Positions 41,428 to 55,505 of a DNA stretch of 64,000 nt are shown here, piece by piece. Source of the DNA: Clostridia bacterium (GTDB taxonomy: Bacteria; Bacillota; Clostridia; Oscillospirales; CAG-272). The stretch is from the NCBI GenBank assembly GCA_017503105.1, contig JAFVTS010000008.1:206212-270211 (forward strand), written 5' to 3'. Under the pieces are notes generated by a model. That model did no database searches. It saw only the letters and a program-made list of their open reading frames with translations, and had not been told where the DNA came from. The stretch's first letter is position 1, and every line of letters starts with the position of its first letter. The position numbers and the translations under genes are program-made.

Positions 41428-42609
41428 TTACTTGCAAAGAGCGCGAAGCTCATCGGCAATATCGCAGATCTCCCACTTAACGCCAAGCTCTTCTCTGCCC
41501 ATATGTCCGTAAGCGGCAAGCTGCTTGTATATCGGCTTGCGAAGATCAAACTTTTTGATTATAGCGGCAGGACGAAGGTCAACGAGCTTATCGACCGCCG
41601 CCGCGATCTTCTCTTCTGCCACGGTTGCCGTGCCGAAGGTCTCTATCATTACCGAAACGGGCTTTGCCACGCCTATTGCGTAAGCTATCTGAACCTCGCA
41701 TTTTTTAGCAAGTCCTGCTTTTACGATATTCTTCGCAACGTATCTTGCGGCGTAGGACGCGCTTCTGTCGACCTTGGTCGGGTCTTTACCGGAGAAGGCA
41801 CCGCCGCCGTGACGGGAATAACCGCCGTAAGTATCAACTATTATCTTTCTTCCCGTAAGTCCCGTGTCACCCTGCGGACCGCCGATAACGAATCTGCCCG
41901 TGGGGTTTACGTGGATATTGACCTTTCCGTCCATAAGCTCTTTAGGAACGATGGGAAGAATGACCTCTTCTATAATATCCTTTCTGATAGTCGCGGCGTC
42001 TATCTCCGCGCTGTGCTGAGAGGATATAACTATCGTGTCGACTCTCTTGGGTGCTCCGTCAACGTACTCGACCGTTACCTGCGTCTTGCCGTCGGGGCGA
42101 AGGTATGAGAGCTTGCCCGATTTTCTGACCTCGGTGAGTCTTTTTGCAAGCTTGTGAGCCAAGGATATGGGGAGCGGCATAAGCTCAGGCGTTTCGTCAC
42201 AAGCAAAGCCGAACATAAGCCCCTGGTCGCCCGCACCCGTATCAAACTCATCGGTGTCGGTTCCCTCTTTAGCTTCAAGGGACTTGTCAACGCCGAGAGC
42301 TATGTCCGCGCTCTGCTCGTGAATGGAGCTGAGAACGGCGCAGGTCGTAGCGTCAAAGCCGTACTTTGCTCTGTCGTATCCTATCTCCTTTACGGTATCT
42401 CTGACTATCTTCTGAACGTCGTACTTCGCGTTCGTCGTTATCTCACCCATAACGGTGATGATGCCCGTGGTGGCAAAGGTCTCGCAAGCAACGCGGCTCA
42501 TAGGATCCTCTGCGATTATAGCGTCAAGGATGGCGTCGGAGATCTTGTCACAAATTTTGTCGGGATGTCCTTCCGTTACGGACTCGGATGTAAAGAGAAA
42601 TTTATTCAT
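41428..42609 (-). CDS. metK: S-adenosylmethionine synthase
   Basis: [13 protein letters not shown]...[12 protein letters not shown]...GGGAFSGKD. Confidence 0.97.
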
Positions 42610-42635: not shown

Positions 42636-42764
42636 AAAGGCGGAAAGCCGCAAAAGCTCCCCGCCATTTAAGAAGATCTCATCTGTCGGGAATTAGCACC
42701 TTGTCACAAAAAAACAGGTTGCCGGGCTTCACAGGGCCAGTCCCTCCGCCACTCTTGATAAGTT
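42636..42764 (-). ncRNA. SAM-I (S-box) riboswitch in the metK leader
   Basis: Minus strand reads CTTATCAAGAGTGGCGGAGGGACTGGCCCTGTGAAGCCCGGCAACC...AAGGTGCTAATTCCCGACAGATGAGATC. A GC-rich hairpin and TTTGATTTG follow, before the metK SD. Confidence 0.85.
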
Positions 42765-45867: not shown

Positions 45868-45917
45868 TAAGTTTTATTTTTACCGTTTTCTTTAAGTTTT
45901 ATTTTTACCGTTTTCCC
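45868..45917. repeat. 25-bp tandem duplication spanning the stop codon of the SOD-like gene
   Basis: TAAGTTTTATTTTTACCGTTTTC occurs at 45868-45890 and again at 45893-45915 (23/23 identical, period 25). More degenerate GTTAAAT.TAA..TTTTAT copies lie at 45840-45877. Confidence 0.9.
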
Positions 45918-46437
45918 TTTCGTTTATCCTTGAGAAGTCAAGATGGGCAAGTGCCGCTCTGACGTAAGCGTCTTTTTTAAAGCCGTAATCCCTGAAAAAC
46001 GCGTGCTCAAAGAGGTCTATCGCAAGGTATATCTCCGCATCCCGAGAGAGCTCGCGCGAATCCGAAAAAGAGAGCCGCCCTCTTCCGTCCGACCAAACGC
46101 AAACGAAGCCGTCCGCCATTTTCTCCGCATAACGGGAAACAAGGTAAGCGAAATTGTTCTCCGAGCCGAAGCGCTCCTTTATTTTCGGACAAGGTATAAA
46201 CGACCGCCCGAAGGACGAAAAATATATTTCGTGCATTTTTATATCGTGCAAGAGCTTTTCTATCTCAGAGCGCTCTTTACCGTCAAGAGGCACTCCGCAA
46301 CGTCCGCCCCTCGCCGCCTTTTCAAGTTCAATACCGCTTTTCTTCAAAATGGACGCCTTATGCTTGAGCTCACAAAGATATTCCTTATGCTCTCTTATCG
46401 CGCCCTCCGACAAAAAAAGTTCCATACCGTTTTTCAT
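45892..46437 (-). CDS. Divergent Fe/Mn-superoxide-dismutase-like protein
   Basis: C-terminal DLFEHAFFRDYGFKKDAYV resembles the SOD D-x-W-E-H-A-Y-Y block, and MHEIYFSSF resembles NHxxFW. ATG 46437 is 7 nt after GGGAG; the longer ORF would overlap hslO. Confidence 0.5.
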   Translation of the reverse strand: MKNGMELFLSEGAIREHKEYLCELKHKASILKKSGIELEKAARGGRCGVPLDGKERSEIEKLLHDIKMHEIYFSSFGRSFIPCPKIKERFGSENNFAYLVSRYAEKMADGFVCVWSDGRGRLSFSDSRELSRDAEIYLAIDLFEHAFFRDYGFKKDAYVRAALAHLDFSRINERENGKNKT

Positions 46438-46505
46438 AAAACCGCTCCCAAAAAAATAAAATCTCCCTACCATATTATTCGGCAGAGAGATTTTCGGTTT
46501 ATGAT

Positions 46506-47393
46506 TTATTTGGTAAGCTCTTCCTCCGAGAAGGTGTACTCGCTGTTGCAGAAGCGGCAAACGGCGGTGAGCTCGCGCGGCTTTCCTTCAGCCACTTGTT
46601 CATCGAGCATTTTGAGTATCTCGGATTTACCGAGGCTCTTGATCTTTTTGTTCATTCTTTCGCGTGAGCAATCGCACTTATACTCGACCTCAAGCTCATC
46701 AAAAAGATCGTAAGGAACGTCGCGGAGCGCTATTTCCGCTATCTCCTCATTGGTAAGCCCCTTCTCGAAATAACGCGAGATATTGGAAAGATCGGCGGCG
46801 TTTCGCTCTATAAGATCGACCGTCGCGTCGTCGGGAAAAGGCATAAGCTGGATCAGGACTCCTCCCGCAGCAAGGCAGGAATAATCACGGTCAACGAGCA
46901 CGCCGAGCGAAAGCACGGTCGGGACCTGCTCACTTTTCGCAAAGTACGCCGCTATATCCTCGGCGATCTCGCCGCTGACTATCTCTGTCATTCCCATCTG
47001 AGGCTCCTTGCCGCCCATATCGCGGATGAACGAAAGCATACCCGCGCCGACAGCCGCACCGACGTCAAGCTTGCCGTTTGGCTTCTTTGGAGGATTCGCA
47101 AGAGGATTTTCAACGTATCCCTTTACGTTGCCGTAGTAATCGGCAACGGCTATAAGCTTTCCTATCGGTCCGTCGCCCGAGAAAGAAACGGTCACCCTGT
47201 CATCCTTTTCGGGGAGCATCGTTCCTATCATCGAAGCCGCGCTCACGAGCCTTCCGAGTGCCGCCGTCGCGGTAGGTGTCGTCCTATGCTTATCTATCAT
47301 AGCATTTACGATTTCTCTCGAATTTATAACTAAAATTCGGGCAGAACCGTCTTTTGTCATTCCTCTTAAAATAGTAGACGTCTTTTTTTCCAT
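46506..47393 (-). CDS. hslO: Redox-regulated chaperone Hsp33
   Basis: C-terminal zinc centre CDCSRERM...CRFCNSEY. Confidence 0.9.
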   Translation of the reverse strand: MEKKTSTILRGMTKDGSARILVINSREIVNAMIDKHRTTPTATAALGRLVSAASMIGTMLPEKDDRVTVSFSGDGPIGKLIAVADYYGNVKGYVENPLANPPKKPNGKLDVGAAVGAGMLSFIRDMGGKEPQMGMTEIVSGEIAEDIAAYFAKSEQVPTVLSLGVLVDRDYSCLAAGGVLIQLMPFPDDATVDLIERNAADLSNISRYFEKGLTNEEIAEIALRDVPYDLFDELEVEYKCDCSRERMNKKIKSLGKSEILKMLDEQVAEGKPRELTAVCRFCNSEYTFSEEELTK

Positions 47394-47414
47394 TTCATTT
47401 TCCTCTCTTTCGGG

Positions 47415-48176
47415 TCAAGTATTTTTCTTGCAGCGCGCCACGATATAAATGCGCTCAGATGCGTCGGTGGCGGCGTTAAATTCAAAATCGGAATAAGCAC
47501 CGACAAATTCAAATCCGCACTCCCCAAGTGCCCTTTTCAAGGACGCAAGCGTGTACATACGCTCCCTGCCCACGTCATCGAAGCGCTCGTATCTTCCGTC
47601 GTCGCACTCCGTCATAAGCGTTATATAAAAATCGCATATTTTCGTGCGCCCGTTATAATCGTTCTGCCAGATGCAAAGAGCTCCGTCCTCTTCCATAACG
47701 TACGAGCGATCGGCGTATATATTCTCAAACTTATATTTGCCGTTGACGTCAAATATAAACAATCCGTCGGGCGAAAGATAATTGTGAACGAGCGAGAAGC
47801 AACGCCCAAGATCGGAGCTGCTTACCAAATGGTTCACACAGTCAAGACAGCTGACCGTCACGTCCACGGTGCCGTAAAGCTCAAACTCCCGCATATCCTG
47901 ACAAAGCCAGAGCATCCTGTCCGAAAGGCCCGCTCTCTCCGCCGCGTCCCTCGCCGCGTCAAGCATCTCGGGCGAGGAGTCAACCCCCGTCATATCGTAT
48001 CCCCTCTTGGCAAGCTCAAGGGTCATTCTTCCCGTCCCGCATCCGAGATCGAGCCAAAGCTCAGGTGTGCCCGAATACTCTTTTTTCACTATTTTCTCAA
48101 TAAAATCAGCCCACGCCGAATAGTCGAGCGATCCGTTTATCTCATCGTAAAACGGCGCGATCAAATCATAAAACAT
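47415..48176 (-). CDS. Class I SAM-dependent methyltransferase (small-molecule/RNA type)
   Basis: Motif I LDLGCGTGRMT. No (D/N/S)PP(Y/F) DNA-methyltransferase motif. The SD GGTGGTGG begins 5 nt after the helicase stop. Confidence 0.8.
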   Translation of the reverse strand: MFYDLIAPFYDEINGSLDYSAWADFIEKIVKKEYSGTPELWLDLGCGTGRMTLELAKRGYDMTGVDSSPEMLDAARDAAERAGLSDRMLWLCQDMREFELYGTVDVTVSCLDCVNHLVSSSDLGRCFSLVHNYLSPDGLFIFDVNGKYKFENIYADRSYVMEEDGALCIWQNDYNGRTKICDFYITLMTECDDGRYERFDDVGRERMYTLASLKRALGECGFEFVGAYSDFEFNAATDASERIYIVARCKKNT

Positions 48177-48194: not shown

Positions 48195-50429
48195 TTATTC
48201 AAACCGTTCTATCACCTCGGACGCCGAAAGCCTGTCCTTGGCGTAAGCGAGCCGCAAAAGATTCGGAGGAATAAAGTCGTCAAACTTATCGAACAAAGGA
48301 CACTCGCCGTCAAATACGAGCTTTTCGACGTCAAGGTCACCGCGCTCGATGATTGAACGTATTCCGTAAATAAGGTTTCTTCCCGCGTCTTCCTTTGCTT
48401 TGAAGGTAATATAATGGCAAAGCTCACTCTGAATATCGAATATACCAAGCTCTGCCGAATATTTTTGCATAGTGCGCTTTAGCGTTCTGAACGCCCTCGT
48501 TCCGAGCCACGGGAACAGTACGTAGCTCTGTCCGCCAAGATGCACGACCATATTGTCCTTCATCCCCGCGTTAGCGGCAACGCGTCTTGCGTTATCAAGG
48601 CGCTCTTTCGCATTCTCGCCAAGGAACTTATATTCCCTCGCTCCGAATAAAACGTCGTACATAGCAACGAGCAGACGCGTGTGTATCTCACCGCCGTCAC
48701 CCGGCCACGAGACCTCCATTTTTCCTTCAACAGCCTTCACGAAGATGAGTCTTCTCGGAATGTCGATCTCCTTGACCTCCCATACCCTGCCCGCAAGAGC
48801 AAATCTGTCACCTACGGGCGGCGGTGTCGTTATCGTTCCGATCTCCTCGCTGTCACACCTTACGGTATAATCCTCGCTATCCTTGAACACAGCGTAAAAC
48901 TTATACGAGTTTATCAGGCGCTCACCCTTTAATCCTATTATAAGCCCACGCTCTTCCGTCATTTCTATATAGTCGTTATTTATCATAGAAACCAGAAGCT
49001 CTCGGTATACGGTTTTGTCAAGCAATGCGAGCGGAGGCAGATCGAGCACTCTCGAAGCGAGAGCCTTCGGTGTAAGCTCGCCCGAAGAAGCAAGAATGCT
49101 GAGAGTCTGGTGGAAGGCAAGGCTCAGCGGCATAGTTTTCACCCTCGGCGGCTCTATAAAGCGCTCGCGCGAATAAAGGTCGATTATCGCGATGCCTCTT
49201 AAAAGCTCCCACGGAATGATCTCGTGAAGCGGCGCGTTCGGAAGTGCCGTTTCTTCCCTGTATACCATTATCATCTCGGGCGGATCGCCGCGTCTTCCCG
49301 AGCGCCCGAGCCTTTGAAGAAAGCCCGAAACGGTAGTCGGGGCGCCCATTTGCGCAACGCGAGAGAGCCGTCCTATATCTATACCGAGCTCCATCGTAAC
49401 GGTAGCGCAGGTCACGGCTTCAAGAACCGTTTCGTCCTTCATCTTTTCCTCCGCGTCCTCACGCAGCGACGCCGAAAGATTTCCGTGATGGATAAGAAAG
49501 ACGTCCTTGTCCGAGCGTTTCTTCGCGATCTGCCTGAGCGTTGCCGTAACGTACTCCGTTTCTTCCCTCGAATTTGAAAACACCAAGGATTTCGTACCGT
49601 AAACTGCGTCGTAAAGATACTCGTACCCGGGATCAAGCTCTGCCTGCCCGCCTCTGTCGCGCCTCTCTGACGTTGCGAGAGACGGATTTTTGGTCTGCGC
49701 CTCGTCCGCGTTCTGAATATAAAAATGCTCAAGCCCAAGCCGCCATTTGAGAGGTAGGTGCGGTGGGACGGGCGCTTCCGTTTCTCTGCCGCTGCCCGCT
49801 CCGAGCCAATCGGCAGCGATCTTCAGATCCCCTACCGTCGCGCTGAGTCCTATCCTCCTTGGAGAATGACCGATAAGGCGCGATATCCTTGACAAAAGAC
49901 AGAGCACCTGACTGCCTCTGTCAGCGCCTATCATCGTGTGTATCTCGTCTATGACAACATAGCGAAGTCCCGAAAACAGGCGAGGTACGTCGTTTGAGCG
50001 ATTCATAAGCATCGACTCAAGCGACTCAGGCGTTATCTGCAGTATTCCGTCGGGATCTTTTAAAAGCTTATCCTTATGTGACGCTCCTACGTCGCCGTGC
50101 CAATGAGTTACGGGAATGCCCGACGCGTCAAGGAGCTCGTCAAGTCTTGAAAACTGATCGTTTATAAGCGATTTCAGAGGCGCTATATAAAGAACGCTGA
50201 CGGAGCGTTCGGCGGGCGGACGGTCAAAAATATCGGCAATGATGGGAAAGAAGGCGGCTTCGGTTTTCCCCGACGCGGTAGACGACGAGATCAAAAGATT
50301 AGACTCAGTCTCAAATATCACCCGTGCCGCCTCAAGCTGGACCTCGCGAAGCTCGGTCCAACCGCGAGAATAAATATATTCCTTTATAAAATCGGGAAAA
50401 CGAGCAAAAACTCTATCCGCACTCGTCAC
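48195..50429 (-). CDS. Lhr/BrxHI-like SF2 (DEAH-type) helicase; third gene of the TerB-ATPase-helicase cassette (SngC-like)
   Basis: Motif I STASGKTEA, II VIDEIH, III LSATVG, HHGNLS and VI QRLGRSGRR, plus a C-terminal domain of about 300 aa. GTG 50429 is 8 nt after GGAGGTG (50438-50444) and is preferred. The ORF maximum is TTG 50474, which would overlap the ATPase stop by 11 nt. Confidence 0.8.
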   Translation of the reverse strand: MTSADRVFARFPDFIKEYIYSRGWTELREVQLEAARVIFETESNLLISSSTASGKTEAAFFPIIADIFDRPPAERSVSVLYIAPLKSLINDQFSRLDELLDASGIPVTHWHGDVGASHKDKLLKDPDGILQITPESLESMLMNRSNDVPRLFSGLRYVVIDEIHTMIGADRGSQVLCLLSRISRLIGHSPRRIGLSATVGDLKIAADWLGAGSGRETEAPVPPHLPLKWRLGLEHFYIQNADEAQTKNPSLATSERRDRGGQAELDPGYEYLYDAVYGTKSLVFSNSREETEYVTATLRQIAKKRSDKDVFLIHHGNLSASLREDAEEKMKDETVLEAVTCATVTMELGIDIGRLSRVAQMGAPTTVSGFLQRLGRSGRRGDPPEMIMVYREETALPNAPLHEIIPWELLRGIAIIDLYSRERFIEPPRVKTMPLSLAFHQTLSILASSGELTPKALASRVLDLPPLALLDKTVYRELLVSMINNDYIEMTEERGLIIGLKGERLINSYKFYAVFKDSEDYTVRCDSEEIGTITTPPPVGDRFALAGRVWEVKEIDIPRRLIFVKAVEGKMEVSWPGDGGEIHTRLLVAMYDVLFGAREYKFLGENAKERLDNARRVAANAGMKDNMVVHLGGQSYVLFPWLGTRAFRTLKRTMQKYSAELGIFDIQSELCHYITFKAKEDAGRNLIYGIRSIIERGDLDVEKLVFDGECPLFDKFDDFIPPNLLRLAYAKDRLSASEVIERFE

Positions 50430-50463
50430 TAAGATCTCACCTCCACGTTCGTTCTGCCCCGAA

Positions 50464-51834
50464 TTAAATGTCAATATCGAACAATCCTACCTTAGGCTTG
50501 GCAGCAAGCGTCACGTCTTCCGCCGTGATCTCACGCTCTTCGGACTCCGGCACGGACAGCGTTATCTCGCCTATCAGCTTATCAAAGGTCGCATCGGGAT
50601 TATCTCTGAGTATATTCATAAGCGCAAGAAGATCGCGCATTATCTCTCTCGGCGTTACCATCTCGGACGCTCCCGCTCTTGAGAGCTCCTTGGCAAGGAA
50701 TTTTTCGGTCTGTGCGTCCGTTATTATCGGTTCGTCAAGCCCCTCCCTTTGAGCGTAGAGCTTTGAGAGGCGTCTGACAAGCGCTAAGAGCTCGTTATCC
50801 GACAAACGGCGTAATCTTATTACGGGCGATGACAGATTCTGATAGCCGAGCTCGGAATATTTAGAATCGGCAAGACGGCTTTTTAAAGCATCGTAGCTGA
50901 AAAGTCCGCGCCTCGTGTCCTCAAGGAATTGCGGCGTTCCTCCGAAAACGACACCGAGCCTGCGGGCCTTGCCCTGAAGGGTATCGTTGAATATCGCAAG
51001 TATTTTTTCATAGTTCGCTTCCCTTGAGATCCTGTTAGGTATTTTATAAAGATTAACACACTCGTCTATAAAAATAATGAGTCCCGAATAACCGAGCTTT
51101 TCGGAAAGAGCGGCGAACAGCTTTATGAAGTTATACCAATTATCGTCGTCTATAATAGCGCTGACTCTGAAGCCGAGAGCGGCTTTAGCCTCGGTCTTAG
51201 TCGAAAATTCACCGCGAAGCCACCTGAGACAAGCGGTCTTTTTCTCCGTGTCATCACGAAGCGACGCCATATAGTACTCACCGAGCACGCTCGCGAAGTC
51301 AAAGCCTCCAACGTCCCCTTCAAGCTCGGAGAGCGTAAGATACACTCTTCTTTTCAGCTCCGCCTCAAAATTCTCATCGGAAGGAAGTATTCCTTCCGAA
51401 ACAAGGTCCGTTTTCAGCTTTGTAAAATGGCGGGAAAGGACCGTGGGCAAAGCTCCTCCGTCGGGGCTCGCCTTGCTCGACATATTTATCATAAGCTCCT
51501 TATACGTTGCAAGGCCTGCGCCGTTACCGCCCGTCAGCCTTCTTTCGGGAGAAAGGTCTGCGTCTGCGCAAATAAATCCGCGCTCAAGAGCGTAACCGCG
51601 AATAAGCTGAATAAGAAAGCTCTTACCGCTTCCGTATCTTCCGATAATAAATCTGCAAGCCGCGCCGCCCTCGGCAACGTCGTCAAGATTGTCAAGCAAG
51701 GAGTTTATCTCCTCGGCCCTGCCTATCGCTATATAAGGAGCTCCGCTTCTCGGCACGACGCCCGCGCTGACGGACGAAAGAAGCGCGCTGAGTATTCTTT
51801 TCGGAACTTTTACATCGTTATTTTCTTGAGCCAT
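50464..51834 (-). CDS. BrxD-like (DUF2791-type) P-loop ATPase; second gene of the cassette (SngB-like)
   Basis: Walker A GRYGSGKS and Walker B LIIFIDE. The overall layout (N-terminal helical region, P-loop core, C-terminal helical region) is as I recall for BREX BrxD. The ATG overlaps the upstream gene by 25 nt. Confidence 0.72.
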   Translation of the reverse strand: MAQENNDVKVPKRILSALLSSVSAGVVPRSGAPYIAIGRAEEINSLLDNLDDVAEGGAACRFIIGRYGSGKSFLIQLIRGYALERGFICADADLSPERRLTGGNGAGLATYKELMINMSSKASPDGGALPTVLSRHFTKLKTDLVSEGILPSDENFEAELKRRVYLTLSELEGDVGGFDFASVLGEYYMASLRDDTEKKTACLRWLRGEFSTKTEAKAALGFRVSAIIDDDNWYNFIKLFAALSEKLGYSGLIIFIDECVNLYKIPNRISREANYEKILAIFNDTLQGKARRLGVVFGGTPQFLEDTRRGLFSYDALKSRLADSKYSELGYQNLSSPVIRLRRLSDNELLALVRRLSKLYAQREGLDEPIITDAQTEKFLAKELSRAGASEMVTPREIMRDLLALMNILRDNPDATFDKLIGEITLSVPESEEREITAEDVTLAAKPKVGLFDIDI

Positions 51835-53447
51835 TCCTTTATTTCCTCCGTATAATCGTCGTATATCCCGTATTTTTCTCCGTCGTTATAAAGAACGACG
51901 TCGCCCATCGCATCGGAAAACGCTTCGTTAATGCGTTCTGCCGCGGAAAAAGCGTCGAATTCATCAATTTCCACTTGTTCGTCGTCGTTTACAAGCGCAG
52001 CTAAAAACGCTACGTCACCGTCCGAGAGCCCGTAGCGATCAACGCCGTCAGAGCGTGGTACTTCCACGTCCGAGAAGCCGACACGCGCGGGTGCTTCATC
52101 TCGTATCTCCGTTTTCTGACGCGCGTTCTCTTCCTTCGTTTCCTCTTCTTCCTCGACGACGAGCCTTTGCGTAACCTGCCAGGACGCGCGTTCTATCTCG
52201 TCAGCTCCCGCAAACGAAAGCTTTTCGTCGGGAGCGTCGTACAGCTTTTCGTATTCGGGGACGTCCGCCTTCACGCGAACGCGCTCTTCCCTCTTGCTTA
52301 TGAGATCAAAATACGTGTCTATCAGCGATCTGTAAGAATCGGGAAGGTCTTTGACCGAAAGACGGCTCTTGATGCCCATCAGCGCTCGAAGCTTATTTTC
52401 GGTATAGCGAACAGCCGCCGTTATACCTGCGCGAAGCCTGTCCGCGTTCATAAGCGAAACGTACTCTATTTCTATTCTGCATTTAACGCTGTGCGTACAA
52501 AGCGAATTCGGAAAAGCGTTTCTCACCAAGGTCCGAGTGCCGCCCGACGTATCGTAAAGCTCTCCGCACTCGTCAAGGCTCAGGAAAAGTCCGCGCATAG
52601 CGGTATACATATGCTTTTTATAGGCATCCGTATCGGAACCCTCGATGAATTTTCCGCGCCGCCAATCGTAATCGGAGAGGAAGGCTATCATAGCGCCTAT
52701 GCTCTCCCCGTCAGCCTCCTTTATATCGGCGAGATAATATTCCTTGAAGGAGGACGCGGCTATGACCTCGTGCATAAAACCGCGAAGCTCTGCCGTAGGA
52801 CACGGAATGCGGTGTATCAGGCAATAATCCTGTATCCACACGGCAAAATTGGCACCTATCCTCGGCAGGTCATTTTTGTATTCCCGCCAAAGAGAAGCAA
52901 GTATCCGAGCCCCTTCCGAAGCGGGGATCTTATCGGGAAGATTCAGGATCTCATAAACGTAAAGATAAAGATAGGAATAATCGGTTTTTACAAATCTGCC
53001 TCGCCTTATCTCCCATCTCCAATAAAAATAGTAATTTTTCTGCTCGGTATTCATTTGAGAATACTGCGGCATATACGAGAAGAAAGGAACGTAATCGCAC
53101 TTTTCGGTCTTGTGGTCGTAATAGACGAGTGCCGCCTTTCTGAAGTTGCCGTAAAAATCGTATTTATCATTCGTTCGCTTGACCGTAACGCGCTTGATAA
53201 GACGGTTTCCGTCGGGGACGTAAGATTCATCGGCAAGGGGCAAGTTTTCCACCTCTTCGCTCTTTTGAAACGTCAGCCTTCTGTCAGACGCCTCGCCGCT
53301 TACAGCGTCGGACGGCTTTTGCGAATCGGGCTCGTAAACCGTCGTTACAGGCTTTGTGGCAAAGGGGCGCAAGGTGCTTTTTTTCTTCGGTATCAGCTTT
53401 TCTATATCCCAAAAATCGTCCTTTTCGTCAAAAGAACCGCCACTCAT
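51810..53447 (-). CDS. TerB-N / TerB-C domain protein; first gene of the cassette (SngA-like)
   Basis: PFFSYMPQYSQMNTEQKNYYFYWRWEIRRGRFVKTDYSYLYLYVYEILN is a TerB-N hallmark. It is followed by an acidic linker (VVEEEEETKEEN) and a C-terminal LSDGDVAFLAALV...AAERINEAFSDAMGDVVL (TerB-C-like). There is no TM and no catalytic motif. Confidence 0.7.
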   Translation of the reverse strand: MSGGSFDEKDDFWDIEKLIPKKKSTLRPFATKPVTTVYEPDSQKPSDAVSGEASDRRLTFQKSEEVENLPLADESYVPDGNRLIKRVTVKRTNDKYDFYGNFRKAALVYYDHKTEKCDYVPFFSYMPQYSQMNTEQKNYYFYWRWEIRRGRFVKTDYSYLYLYVYEILNLPDKIPASEGARILASLWREYKNDLPRIGANFAVWIQDYCLIHRIPCPTAELRGFMHEVIAASSFKEYYLADIKEADGESIGAMIAFLSDYDWRRGKFIEGSDTDAYKKHMYTAMRGLFLSLDECGELYDTSGGTRTLVRNAFPNSLCTHSVKCRIEIEYVSLMNADRLRAGITAAVRYTENKLRALMGIKSRLSVKDLPDSYRSLIDTYFDLISKREERVRVKADVPEYEKLYDAPDEKLSFAGADEIERASWQVTQRLVVEEEEETKEENARQKTEIRDEAPARVGFSDVEVPRSDGVDRYGLSDGDVAFLAALVNDDEQVEIDEFDAFSAAERINEAFSDAMGDVVLYNDGEKYGIYDDYTEEIKEWLKKITM

Positions 53448-53484
53448 TTCTGCCCCTCCATTTTATCATTTTCTGTAATAACTT

Positions 53485-53513
53485 ATTATATCATAAAAAC
53501 CGTTACTTGTCAA
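53485..53513 (-). promoter_or_regulatory. Near-consensus sigma-A promoter of the TerB-ATPase-helicase cassette
   Basis: Minus strand reads TTGACA (53513-53508), 17-nt spacer, TATAAT (53490-53485), with a TGa extended -10. GGAGGGG SD (53459-53453) lies 5 nt before ATG 53447. Confidence 0.6.
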
Positions 53514-53550
53514 GAAAAAAACGCGAGCTAACTGTCAAAACCGAAGAAAA

Positions 53551-53597
53551 AAGATAAAAAAATATCACCGAGGTACTGCCTAAGCAACACCTCGGCG
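53551..53597 (-). terminator. Intrinsic terminator after ispE
   Basis: Minus strand GCCGAGGT...ACCTCGGT (53596-53589 / 53574-53567), followed by GATATTTTTTTATCTTTTTT. Confidence 0.7.
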
Positions 53598-53620: not shown

Positions 53621-54499
53621 TCAAACGGATAGCGCCAAAAACGCGCCGTATCCTTCTTTTTCAAGAGCGGCTCTTGCAGCCGTCGCCGTTTTTTCATCCG
53701 AGAAAACTCCGAAAACGGTAGGGCCGCTTCCGCTCATCATAGCACCGTCAGCCCCAAGGTCGAGCAAGCGCGTCTTTGCCTTTTCCGACTCGGGAACGAG
53801 AGGAAAAACAGCCGACTCAAACACGTTGTACATTTCTCCGACGGCAAGCTTTCCCGATTTCAACGACTCAAGCAAGCCGTCAAGCGAGCCCGCGTGTCCG
53901 TGCGGTGCTTTGAAATCTCCGTAGAGTCCGTCAAGCGCCGTGTATGCAACAGGCGTTGAAACGTGCGCGTTTACTTTAACTATAACAAAGCAAACGCCAT
54001 CAAGGTCGTTGAGCCTCGTCATTATTTCTCCCCTGCCCGTGCAAAGCGCCGTCTTTCCTATAAGACAGTACGGCACGTCGCTGCCAAGCTCCGCAGCCAT
54101 TGAAAGCATCACCTTTTCGCCAAACGGCCTTGAGAAAATACGGTTCATCGCCCGAAGAACCGCTGCCGCGTCGGACGATCCGCCCGCAAGCCCCGCCGCA
54201 ACGGGAATGTTTTTCTTTAATTTTATATTGACGTTAGCTGACGTGCCAAGACGGGCGAGGAACGTCTGTGCCGCCCTAACCGCAAGATTACGTCCGTCCG
54301 TCGGAAGGAAATCAGCCCCGCCTACGGAGAGCCTGACCTGACCGCCCGAGCGCACGCACTCAGCGCTCACAGTTATCTCATCGGCAAGAGAGACCGTATG
54401 CATCACCGTTTCTATCTCGTGAAATCCGTCATCGCGTTTTTTCGTTACGTCAAGATATAAATTTATCTTAGCGTAAGCCTTTTCCTTTACCGAGTTCAT
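53621..54499 (-). CDS. ispE: 4-diphosphocytidyl-2-C-methyl-D-erythritol kinase
   Basis: AYAKINLYLDV...PVAAGLAGGSSDAAA. Confidence 0.9.
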   Translation of the reverse strand: MNSVKEKAYAKINLYLDVTKKRDDGFHEIETVMHTVSLADEITVSAECVRSGGQVRLSVGGADFLPTDGRNLAVRAAQTFLARLGTSANVNIKLKKNIPVAAGLAGGSSDAAAVLRAMNRIFSRPFGEKVMLSMAAELGSDVPYCLIGKTALCTGRGEIMTRLNDLDGVCFVIVKVNAHVSTPVAYTALDGLYGDFKAPHGHAGSLDGLLESLKSGKLAVGEMYNVFESAVFPLVPESEKAKTRLLDLGADGAMMSGSGPTVFGVFSDEKTATAARAALEKEGYGAFLALSV

Positions 54500-54521: not shown

Positions 54522-55268
54522 TTACTGCTTCGTTGCCTCTTCGCACATACTTATATCTTCCATACTCTTCTCGTTTTCATCGCCGAGGATTATATCAAAG
54601 ATCTTCTCGGCAAAGAGCTTGTGCATTTCCCTGTTGGGATGATTGATCCTGTTTGCAAGCAGCATAGTGGTATCAACGCCCGATTCGTAAAGCTTTTTCC
54701 ATTCCGAATAACAGTCAGCTACGGGAACACCCATCGAGCTTGCCACTTCCTTTGCCGCATTCATATACTTATCCACGAGTCCGCTTTTTTGCATTTCTAC
54801 GGTTTTCGCGGCGTACTCTCTTAATCCTTCGGGAGTGTCATCGGCAACGTAAGTATTAAACATATTTTCCGTCATAAAAACGACTTCTGCGCCTATGGAT
54901 TGGCATTTTTCAAAAATCTCTCTAAGTGAGGCACAGTATGCGTCCGTGCCCTTGTTTTTGCTTATGTCATTGAGTGCGAACGCCACTATTACAAGATCGG
55001 GCGAGTGCGACAAGACCTGGGACTCGAGCCTCGCAAGAGAGTTGGTTGCGTTCGTTCCACCGATGCCCGAGTTTATCACGTTCACGGGGATCGCGGGATT
55101 TACACCGTTTATCATTTTCCTGAGCACGTTCCAATAGACGTTTTCGAAATCTACAGCCCCGTGCTCAAAAGCTCCGTACGTAAGACTGTCACCGAATGCA
55201 ACTATGGTTATCGCACCGTTTTCGATGAACGCTTTTAGGTTCATTTTAATTTTTTCTCTGATTTTCAT
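54522..55268 (-). CDS. SGNH/GDSL-family hydrolase
   Basis: Block I AFGDSLTYG, block III GINDI-like ALNDI and block V NHPN. ATG 55268 is 7 nt after GAGGTG. Confidence 0.8.
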   Translation of the reverse strand: MKIREKIKMNLKAFIENGAITIVAFGDSLTYGAFEHGAVDFENVYWNVLRKMINGVNPAIPVNVINSGIGGTNATNSLARLESQVLSHSPDLVIVAFALNDISKNKGTDAYCASLREIFEKCQSIGAEVVFMTENMFNTYVADDTPEGLREYAAKTVEMQKSGLVDKYMNAAKEVASSMGVPVADCYSEWKKLYESGVDTTMLLANRINHPNREMHKLFAEKIFDIILGDENEKSMEDISMCEEATKQ

Positions 55269-55505
55269 TGTAACCCACCTCGCAGTTAAAGCAGATTTGC
55301 ATTTGCACAAGCATAATTTGCTTTAAAAATTATATCATAAATGCTGACGCTTGTCAAGTTTTTTGCCAAGTTTTAAGGATAGGAGCATTCCGTGCGCTTA
55401 TCGTTTTAAAAGCTTAATACCCGCTCGAATTTTAAGAGCCGCGGCTTTTCGTCTTGCTTCTAAAAACGTTTTTGATAACGCTTGGAAATATTTTGCTAAA
55501 AGGTA

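Follow-up and report, generated by a model that had tools for sequence, protein, structure and literature searches.

Organization of the locus

The window analyzed here, meaning the whole stretch of 64,000 nucleotides (nt), comes from a Clostridia bacterium (assembly GCA_017503105.1, contig JAFVTS010000008.1, positions 206,212–270,211 of the forward strand). Three successive and co-oriented open reading frames (ORFs) on its minus strand form a cassette, SngABC, that resembles the Shango anti-phage system. The first gene, sngA (51810–53447, −), encodes a TerB_N/TerB_C protein of 545 amino acids (aa). The second, sngB (50464–51834, −), encodes a 456-aa ATPase of the BrxC_BrxD family (ORC/Cdc6-like AAA+), and the third, sngC (48195–50429, −), a superfamily 2 (SF2) helicase of the Lhr/BrxHI-like type with 744 aa from a GTG start. 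On the upstream side the cassette is flanked by ispE, a GHMP kinase gene (53621–54499, −). On the downstream side, a gene for a 253-aa class I S-adenosylmethionine (SAM) methyltransferase (47415–48176, −) follows sngC after 18 nt, and hslO, the gene of the redox chaperone Hsp33 (46506–47393, −), follows after another 21 nt as the last gene of the predicted transcription unit. A first-pass annotation of this DNA had described three consecutive minus-strand genes between ispE and a methyltransferase–hslO pair, embedded in housekeeping DNA, and the ORFs, the flanks and the larger ORFs of the window agree with that description.

The genes of the cassette are tightly packed. The sngA and sngB reading frames overlap by 25 nt. 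The sngC frame is open from a TTG at 50474 (48195–50474, 759 aa), but the GTG at 50429 is likely to be the true start, because it is served by a GGAGGTG ribosome binding site (RBS) at 8-nt spacing and because 744 aa is the length of essentially all homologs. With the GTG start, sngB and sngC are separated by 34 nt, while the TTG start would make them overlap by 11 nt. All three genes are thus adjacent and co-oriented with a single promoter upstream, the arrangement that is asked of a Shango system. An ORF of 454 aa on the opposite strand (52167–53531, +), antisense to sngA, is rejected as a chance shadow frame, because the longest antisense open frame reaches only 167–295 codons in eight of nine relatives.

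Family assignment of the three proteins

In profile searches the three proteins give matches far beyond chance. Pfam identifies TerB_N (E = 7.9e-16) and TerB_C (E = 1e-7) in SngA, both above gathering scores, BrxC_BrxD (E = 5e-147) in SngB, and DEAD (E = 9e-28) and Helicase_C (E = 7e-15) in SngC. The first-pass annotation had expected these five families and DEAD_assoc (PF08494) in addition; the five are found, whereas neither DEAD_assoc nor DUF1998 gives a Pfam match in SngC at E ≤ 0.01. The PADLOC SngA profile aligns with an E-value of 8.2e-44 (residues 92–540 on profile positions 81–527 of 528), the SngB profile over the full length with 3.7e-161, and the SngC profile with 1.3e-233 over residues 22–755 of the 759-aa frame. 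The second-best profiles are BrxD for SngB (1.5e-42) and BrxHI for SngC (1.2e-121), and the Sng profiles score 2–4 times higher than the Brx profiles on these two proteins. The calls made earlier for a TerB_N/TerB_C protein, a BrxD-like P-loop ATPase and an Lhr-like SF2 helicase, their assignment to Shango, and the homology of the last two to the type 2 BREX brxD/brxHI pair are all borne out by these matches.

Curated thresholds separate the cassette from its better known relatives. SngB scores 145.8 bits against the NCBIfam model BREX_BrxD (NF033438), below the cut-off of 350. Against the Lhr-type NCBIfam models, SngC scores 102 bits for PRK09751 (cut-off 1496) and 190 for PRK13767 (cut-off 849), and it stays far under the cut-offs of the NCBIfam ligase-associated helicase equivalogs. 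By these thresholds the cassette is neither a BREX system nor an Lhr ortholog. The TerB domain proper (PF05099) is not detected in SngA by Pfam at E ≤ 0.01; only TerB_N and TerB_C are. As the first-pass annotation had noted, SngA is soluble and no nuclease or toxin domain is visible to Pfam in the cassette; a transmembrane segment is absent from SngB and SngC as well as from SngA. Profile matches and gene order, the criteria that annotation tools apply, identify a complete Shango (SngABC) cassette, and standard tools would report it as a Shango system. Every feature of Shango membership that a sequence can reveal is found here.

Sequence features of SngA, SngB and SngC

SngA consists of conserved blocks joined by flexible segments. 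Close to the N-terminus, a D-x-F-W-D motif (residues 10–14; window 53406–53420, −) is kept in 128–132 of 137 family representatives and shows 76% identity inside the clade of relatives described below; it looks like a docking peptide for a partner. It is followed by a disordered linker (residues 23–68) with 24% identity in the clade. The structured core with TerB_N covers approximately residues 69–430, is helical and shows 47–65% identity; it includes the sequence PFFSYMPQYSQ at residues 121–131. A second linker, acidic and disordered (residues 431–470, 15% identity), leads to TerB_C (residues 471–545, 45% identity). Residues invariant throughout the family include P127, Y140, R144, Y159, E166, N351, R354, E419, N507 and D516. 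The family is large. Clustered at 50% identity it comprises about 2,257 representatives, and SngA has more than 849 full-length homologs, which are mostly unnamed proteins from metagenome-assembled genomes (MAGs) of Clostridia, Oscillospiraceae or Ruminococcaceae. A possible Cys/His metal site (C209, C216, C317 and H319) looks conserved in the clade, but we dropped it because across the family C216 occurs in only 40 of 137 and H319 in only 45 of 137 representatives. A Foldseek search with the SngA model (predicted local distance difference test, pLDDT, 79) returns weak winged-helix-like matches only, with a best E-value of 2.1 and probabilities of at most 0.28.

The catalytic motifs of the other two proteins are intact. 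SngB carries a Walker A motif, GRYGSGKS, at residues 65–72 (K71) and a Walker B motif within LIIFIDE at residues 252–258 (FIDE; D257/E258); both are invariant in relatives, including a plasmid-borne homolog. A PDB sequence search with SngB finds no solved relative. SngC has motif I ASGKTEA at residues 52–58 (K55), motif II DEIH at 161–164, motif III SAT at 196–198 and motif VI QRLGRSGRR at 372–380, all four invariant in 50 homologs. The motifs that the first-pass annotation had quoted are all present in the translations of the three proteins. The nearest solved helicases to SngC by sequence are YprA/MrfA (2.5e-27) and then Lhr (1.6e-25), while the top Foldseek match of the SngC model is Lhr (PDB entry 5v9x; E = 9e-21, about 838 columns, template modeling score 0.31). 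The model itself is weak because the alignment behind it is shallow (76–95% identity). Homologs in that identity range form at least 120 distinct 90%-identity clusters, and nearly all of them are 739–753 aa long.

Transcription signals

The cassette appears to carry its own transcription start. A TG-extended TTGACA-17-TATAAT promoter with perfect consensus is located at 53485–53513 (−), 37 nt upstream of the sngA ATG, which is preceded by a GGAGGGG RBS. Coordinate 53513, where the interval of the first-pass annotation ended, belongs to the −35 hexamer of this promoter. The promoter matches the consensus at 12 of 12 positions in the window and at 11–12 of 12 in eight of ten related loci, and it is kept though synonymous sites are saturated between many of those relatives. 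An intrinsic-terminator-like hairpin with a 14-bp stem and a T run (53566–53597, −) lies just past the ispE stop codon and separates ispE from the cassette. A similar hairpin with a 15-bp stem and a T run (46458–46494, −) lies just past the hslO stop codon and marks the predicted end of the operon. The predicted transcription unit is sngA-sngB-sngC-methyltransferase-hslO, because the gaps on both sides of the methyltransferase gene leave no room for a terminator and the next strong hairpin comes only after hslO. The sngA promoter therefore apparently also drives the methyltransferase gene and hslO. Since ispE, the methyltransferase gene and hslO are contiguous in a lineage with an empty site (see below), the insertion would have brought its own terminator–promoter arrangement and taken over transcription of the methyltransferase–hslO pair.

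A second perfect TG-extended TTGACA-17-TATAAT promoter is found at 55329–55357 (−), upstream of a GDSL-like lipase gene (54522–55310) that is followed by ispE. This suggests that the lipase gene and ispE form a separate transcription unit ending at the hairpin at 53566–53597.

Conserved position and history of the cassette

The position of the cassette is conserved. Gene contexts were looked up for SngA homologs at 84, 67, 62, 50 and 48% identity and for three SngC homologs at 78–79% identity. Every one of these eight contexts shows the same block, which comprises the TerB_N protein, the BrxD-like ATPase, the helicase, a class I methyltransferase, Hsp33, a Sod_Fe_C-like protein and phosphofructokinase (PFK). 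The order cassette, methyltransferase, Hsp33, Sod_Fe_C-like protein and PFK is seen in loci L081–L089 and L138–L140 and in 11 metagenome loci. In total, the cassette occupies this junction, immediately upstream of the methyltransferase gene, in 20 of the clade's 22 informative loci. This fixed position persists down to about 65–70% identity of the housekeeping neighbors, and the 20 loci with the identical insertion point span saturated synonymous divergence. The upstream side is more variable. In relatives it is usually ispE. Some relatives carry extra genes there, such as EamA, a PadR cluster or a gene for a beta-lactamase-fold protein, and one has a cation ATPase.

A scan of metagenomes by Hsp33 alignment adds 47 further loci and reveals the limits of this arrangement. 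We define the inner clade as loci with Hsp33 at least 68% identical to that of the window. Within it, the cassette lies directly upstream of the methyltransferase gene in every informative locus except two. In these two, L106 (64–1712) and L129 (708–2304), the site is empty and ispE abuts the methyltransferase gene, overlapping it by 4 nt in L106 and lying 10 nt from it in L129. Neither empty site shows any trace of the cassette. Just outside the inner clade, L107 (Hsp33 65% and ispE 43% identical) still has the cassette between ispE and the methyltransferase gene, with SngB at 67%, SngC at 63% and SngA at 35% identity, and this divergence is proportionate to that of its flanks. Loci with Hsp33 at 50–64% identity keep methyltransferase–hslO and have murC/spoVG, a topoisomerase or other genes upstream, with no cassette. 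A genome scan with ispE returned distant ispE genes only (at most 41.7% identical); one of these loci, L001 from an Oscillospiraceae MAG, has no cassette within 10 kb.

A neighbor-joining tree of concatenated methyltransferase and Hsp33 sequences (200 bootstraps) places these observations in order. All cassette-less outgroups fall outside the cassette-bearing inner clade in 200 of 200 bootstraps. The sister of this clade is L107 in 163 of 200, and the empty-site locus L106 is nested within the inner clade in 200 of 200. The empty-site lineage therefore represents a loss. These placements are explained most simply by a single ancient insertion followed by vertical descent, with one clean loss.

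These data bear directly on the reading as a mobile defense islet, recently inserted and variably present among close relatives, which goes back to the defense islet of the first-pass annotation. Such an islet would be in keeping with the behavior of the family elsewhere. SngB homologs occur on 695 plasmids, 542 of them conjugative, and a copy in Clostridium estertheticum sits by a relaxase gene and IS110 transposases; in Escherichia coli, Shango copies are found in tRNA-linked genomic islands (PMC11096173), and in Pseudomonas aeruginosa in the variable cDHS1 hotspot (PMC10250203). The empty sites of L106 and L129 could also be read in this way, but their nested placement makes them a loss. 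At this locus the patchy, island- or MGE-associated (mobile genetic element) distribution expected of Shango is replaced by 20 loci with one fixed junction at saturated synonymous divergence. The GC content, about 0.5 across the window, shows no dip in the cassette, which matches its surroundings. No integrase, transposase, tRNA or repeat signature is seen in the parts of the window examined, and the synonymous divergence of the cassette equals that of the flanks (see below). A recent mobile insertion is therefore very improbable, and this reading is largely refuted here. In the ispE-to-hslO interval, polymorphism is limited to a single empty-site lineage, nested within the clade, and to the lack of the cassette in the outgroups. 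Core-like conservation at the locus in essentially all relatives, which the first-pass annotation had itself named as speaking against an islet, is essentially what is observed.

Evolutionary rates

The cassette diverges in step with its housekeeping neighbors. Identities to the window proteins in L081, L082, L084, L086 and L088, in that order, are 97, 86, 86, 76 and 76% for SngC, 93, 84, 82, 74 and 74% for SngB, and 84, 67, 62, 50 and 48% for SngA. The corresponding values are 96, 87, 88, 69 and 77% for Hsp33 and 95, 84, 81, 70 and 70% for PFK, while IspE shows 91, 73 and 71% in the first three and 54% in L088 and is not present in L086. SngB and SngC are thus conserved to the level of PFK and Hsp33; on average they have diverged even less than PFK, Hsp33 and the methyltransferase. 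The pairwise distances of all three Sng proteins are correlated with the PFK and Hsp33 distances (r = 0.80–0.93), as tightly as those of housekeeping genes among themselves.

The ratio of nonsynonymous to synonymous substitution rates (dN/dS, or ω) was computed between the window and L081, where dS is unsaturated. It is 0.17 for SngA, 0.074 for SngB and 0.029 for SngC, which can be compared with 0.10 for IspE, 0.065 for the methyltransferase, 0.047 for Hsp33, 0.055 for PFK and 0.019 for pyruvate kinase (PK). In the same comparison, dS of the cassette genes (0.49–0.52) equals that of the flanks (0.43–0.60). The presence/absence polymorphism predicted for a defense islet is hard to reconcile with such values (dN/dS 0.03–0.17, dS as in the flanks) at a junction occupied in 20 of 22 informative loci. 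SngA is the fastest-evolving member of the trio, with dN 2–6 times higher than in SngB or SngC. A fast SngA beside constrained SngB and SngC is what one would expect if SngA were a sensor or the subunit that sets specificity, and it points to SngA as the specificity subunit.

The methyltransferase–hslO pair and neighboring genes

The methyltransferase is a generic class I SAM-dependent enzyme (Methyltransf_25/11, UbiE-like), and the 253-aa protein has no match to a DNA N6-methylase family. A weak match to TehB, a tellurite methyltransferase, covers the SAM-binding motif only and is taken as a generic SAM-binding-site match. We considered whether the enzyme could be a fourth component of the cassette, which would make it a modification-dependent system similar to BREX or to restriction–modification, or a remnant of type 2 BREX. 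The 18-nt distance to sngC, the 11-nt overlap of the two genes in one relative and the homology of SngB and SngC to BrxD and BrxHI would suit this idea. Against it, at least 13 loci without the cassette keep the methyltransferase–hslO pair, with Hsp33 down to 50% identity, and a plasmid-borne Shango has no such neighbor. The enzyme matches no DNA N6-methylase family, no PglX, PglZ, BrxC or PglW gene is nearby, and the BREX_BrxD score of SngB (146 against a cut-off of 350) is low. We rejected the methyltransferase as a component because the pair is older and more widespread than the cassette, and we regard a system of this kind as highly unlikely.

The pair shows other features of its own. In the outer lineages (L108–L128), methyltransferase–hslO (window 46506–48176, −) is preceded by murC and spoVG. 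In L138 (8246–8256), the end of sngC and the start of the methyltransferase gene share 11 nt, a hint that translation of the cassette is coupled to that of the older genes downstream. A Sod_Fe_C-only protein (window 45892–46560, −) is encoded just downstream of hslO in every related locus (L081–L140). In relatives it has about 175–195 aa and evolves fast (34–82% identity); in the window, its true start is probably downstream of the TTG at 46560.

Neighbors of the cassette are ispE, the GDSL lipase-like gene, the class I SAM methyltransferase gene, hslO, the Sod_Fe_C-like gene and the PFK and PK genes. Elsewhere in the window, the larger ORFs that were scanned are likewise housekeeping genes and include dnaE, a Clp ATPase gene, recN, the dcw cluster, recD2 and metK, together with PK, PFK, the rpsF-ssb-rpsR region and cardiolipin synthase. 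In the window parts examined, no MGE genes, tRNA or other defense genes were found. A SAM riboswitch (RF00162, 78.6 bits) is located at 42676–42764 (−), upstream of metK (41428–42609).

Proposed function

We consider it somewhat probable that the cassette would still be an anti-phage or anti-plasmid system, one that has become part of the core gene set in this lineage. The Shango operon would have entered the junction between ispE and methyltransferase–hslO once, in the ancestor of a deep clade of uncultured Oscillospiraceae-like Clostridia. It would then have been passed on vertically under strong purifying selection, constitutively expressed from its own conserved promoter. The steps of the mechanism are drawn from homology only. 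Lhr is a 3′-to-5′ single-stranded DNA translocase, and SngC may be an Lhr/BrxHI-like translocase that acts on invading or aberrant DNA. SngB, as an ORC/Cdc6-type AAA+ protein, may oligomerize and load or activate SngC, in the way proposed by the loader–helicase model in which BrxD loads or activates BrxHI (PMC12839542). SngA, which is soluble, evolves faster and has a docking motif and flexible linkers, would serve as the adaptor or sensor and determine the time and place at which the motor engages. Because no nuclease or toxin is encoded, interference would consist in unwinding or stripping the replication intermediates of foreign DNA at the expense of ATP, or in passing the DNA to host nucleases. 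A defense role is plausible by analogy with characterized Shango systems, and the fast divergence of SngA suits it. What the computation itself shows is the composition, the intact catalytic motifs, the tight operon, the strong purifying selection and the faster evolution of SngA.

Several observations weigh against a defense role or soften the case for it. The depth of conservation, ω values like those of glycolytic enzymes, the strong constitutive promoter and the co-transcription with a chaperone gene are atypical of immune genes, and conservation, promoter and hslO linkage would fit a housekeeping role at least as well. No effector domain is visible in the cassette, a PDB sequence search finds no solved structure for SngA, and the SngC model, with a pLDDT of 63, gives little confidence for the C-terminal domains. 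The operon structure comes from consensus scans only, and no published mechanism of Shango was found in the literature up to 2025–26 (10.1101/2025.09.30.679545).

A housekeeping role has to be weighed on this background. The cassette could be a domesticated module for constitutive nucleic acid maintenance that, like Lhr and MrfA, handles for example damaged DNA, R-loops or stalled forks, with immunity no longer or never its main task; co-expression with hslO may also link it to oxidative or chalcogen stress. The low ω of SngC and SngB (0.03–0.07), the co-divergence with housekeeping genes and a mean divergence of these two proteins below that of PFK, Hsp33 and the methyltransferase are what such a module should show. 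So are the conserved consensus promoter, the predicted co-transcription with Hsp33 near a Sod_Fe_C-like gene, and the lack of toxin or nuclease genes in the cassette and of MGE, tRNA or other defense genes in the parts of the window examined. The nearest solved helicases, Lhr and MrfA/YprA, are DNA-repair enzymes. On the other side, the proteins match, over their full length, profiles that derive from experimentally protective Shango systems. The cassette is dispensable, since one nested lineage has lost it cleanly, and all outgroups live without it and yet keep methyltransferase–hslO. SngA diverges fast, and the linkage with hslO predates the cassette and may be incidental. On balance we regard a housekeeping role as less probable than a defense role but as an alternative to be taken seriously.

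A related suggestion, which we put forward only tentatively, is that Shango has here been domesticated into a constitutive core machine for nucleic acid surveillance or repair, co-expressed with the Hsp33 chaperone. If this is true, Shango would act as a helicase that is driven by its loader and is not toxic, with aberrant DNA or RNA:DNA structures as substrates, and phage protection would be a by-product.

Whether still immune or domesticated, the cassette is of interest for studies of Shango, one of the validated defense systems. Defense genes are usually patchy, mobile and fast-evolving, and the locus offers a natural example of an immune-type module that behaves like a core gene, which bears on how defense systems become fixed or domesticated. 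It also provides a large and evenly diverged set of orthologs, which form hundreds of clusters at 90% identity and could serve to study covariation, interfaces and structure of a SngA–SngB–SngC complex, and is a useful lead toward the mechanism.

Comparison with known systems

The DNA-repair helicases Lhr (PDB entry 5v9x) and MrfA/YprA (PDB entry 6znp) share SF2 motifs I, II (DEIH), III and VI with SngC. Lhr and MrfA work without TerB or BrxD-like partners. The BrxD–BrxHI pair of type 2 BREX/Pgl, reportedly described by Goldfarb et al. in 2015, combines a homologous ORC/Cdc6-like AAA+ ATPase with an Lhr/Ski2-like helicase in a tightly linked dyad, as SngB and SngC do. It differs in its partners: here the partner is a TerB_N/TerB_C protein, and PglX, PglZ, BrxC and PglW are absent from the neighbors of the cassette and from the larger window ORFs that were scanned.

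Bunzi and Dionysus, two other TerB-associated defense systems, share with the cassette the 'TerB' label and a proposed role in sensing or membrane surveillance (10.1101/2022.05.11.491447; 10.1101/2025.09.30.679545). They carry transmembrane or pore-forming partners, whereas SngA has neither PF05099 nor a transmembrane helix. The idea of membrane surveillance in the literature rests on TerB proper (10.1101/2022.05.11.491447). Because SngA lacks both the TerB domain proper and a transmembrane segment, a membrane role is not supported here.

A clostridial Shango is present on plasmid pCF002-344 of C. estertheticum (NZ_CP086238.1; L137), with the same three genes in the same order. Its SngB and SngC are each 47% identical to those of the window, while SngA can be aligned over only 77 residues with 34% identity. 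The plasmid copy adjoins the relaxase gene and IS110 transposases in a mobile context and has no adjoining methyltransferase gene, whereas the context of the window cassette is fixed. An 848-aa gene product with an ABC-ATPase domain is encoded 18 nt downstream of the plasmid Shango (L137:9578–12124), and it may be an accessory fourth gene in the pCF002-344 variant.

The closest functional reference is the Shango of E. coli and P. aeruginosa PA14 (Millman et al. 2022; Johnson et al. 2023), which protects both species against phage (10.1101/2022.05.11.491447; PMC10250203). It has the same trio in the same order and likewise encodes no nuclease or toxin. By its sequence the cassette is a member of this already validated family and not a new kind of system, so the novelty given to it in the first-pass annotation was overstated (10.1101/2022.05.11.491447; PMC10250203). 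The difference lies in the genomic setting. Shango of E. coli and P. aeruginosa resides in variable hotspots or islands, whereas the cassette described here, as known from its sequence, occupies a fixed chromosomal site, is inherited vertically and has a promoter in common with methyltransferase–hslO. Its unusual feature is evolutionary, namely a defense-type operon fixed at one site across genus-to-family-level divergence, under housekeeping-like constraint and wired into a chaperone operon.

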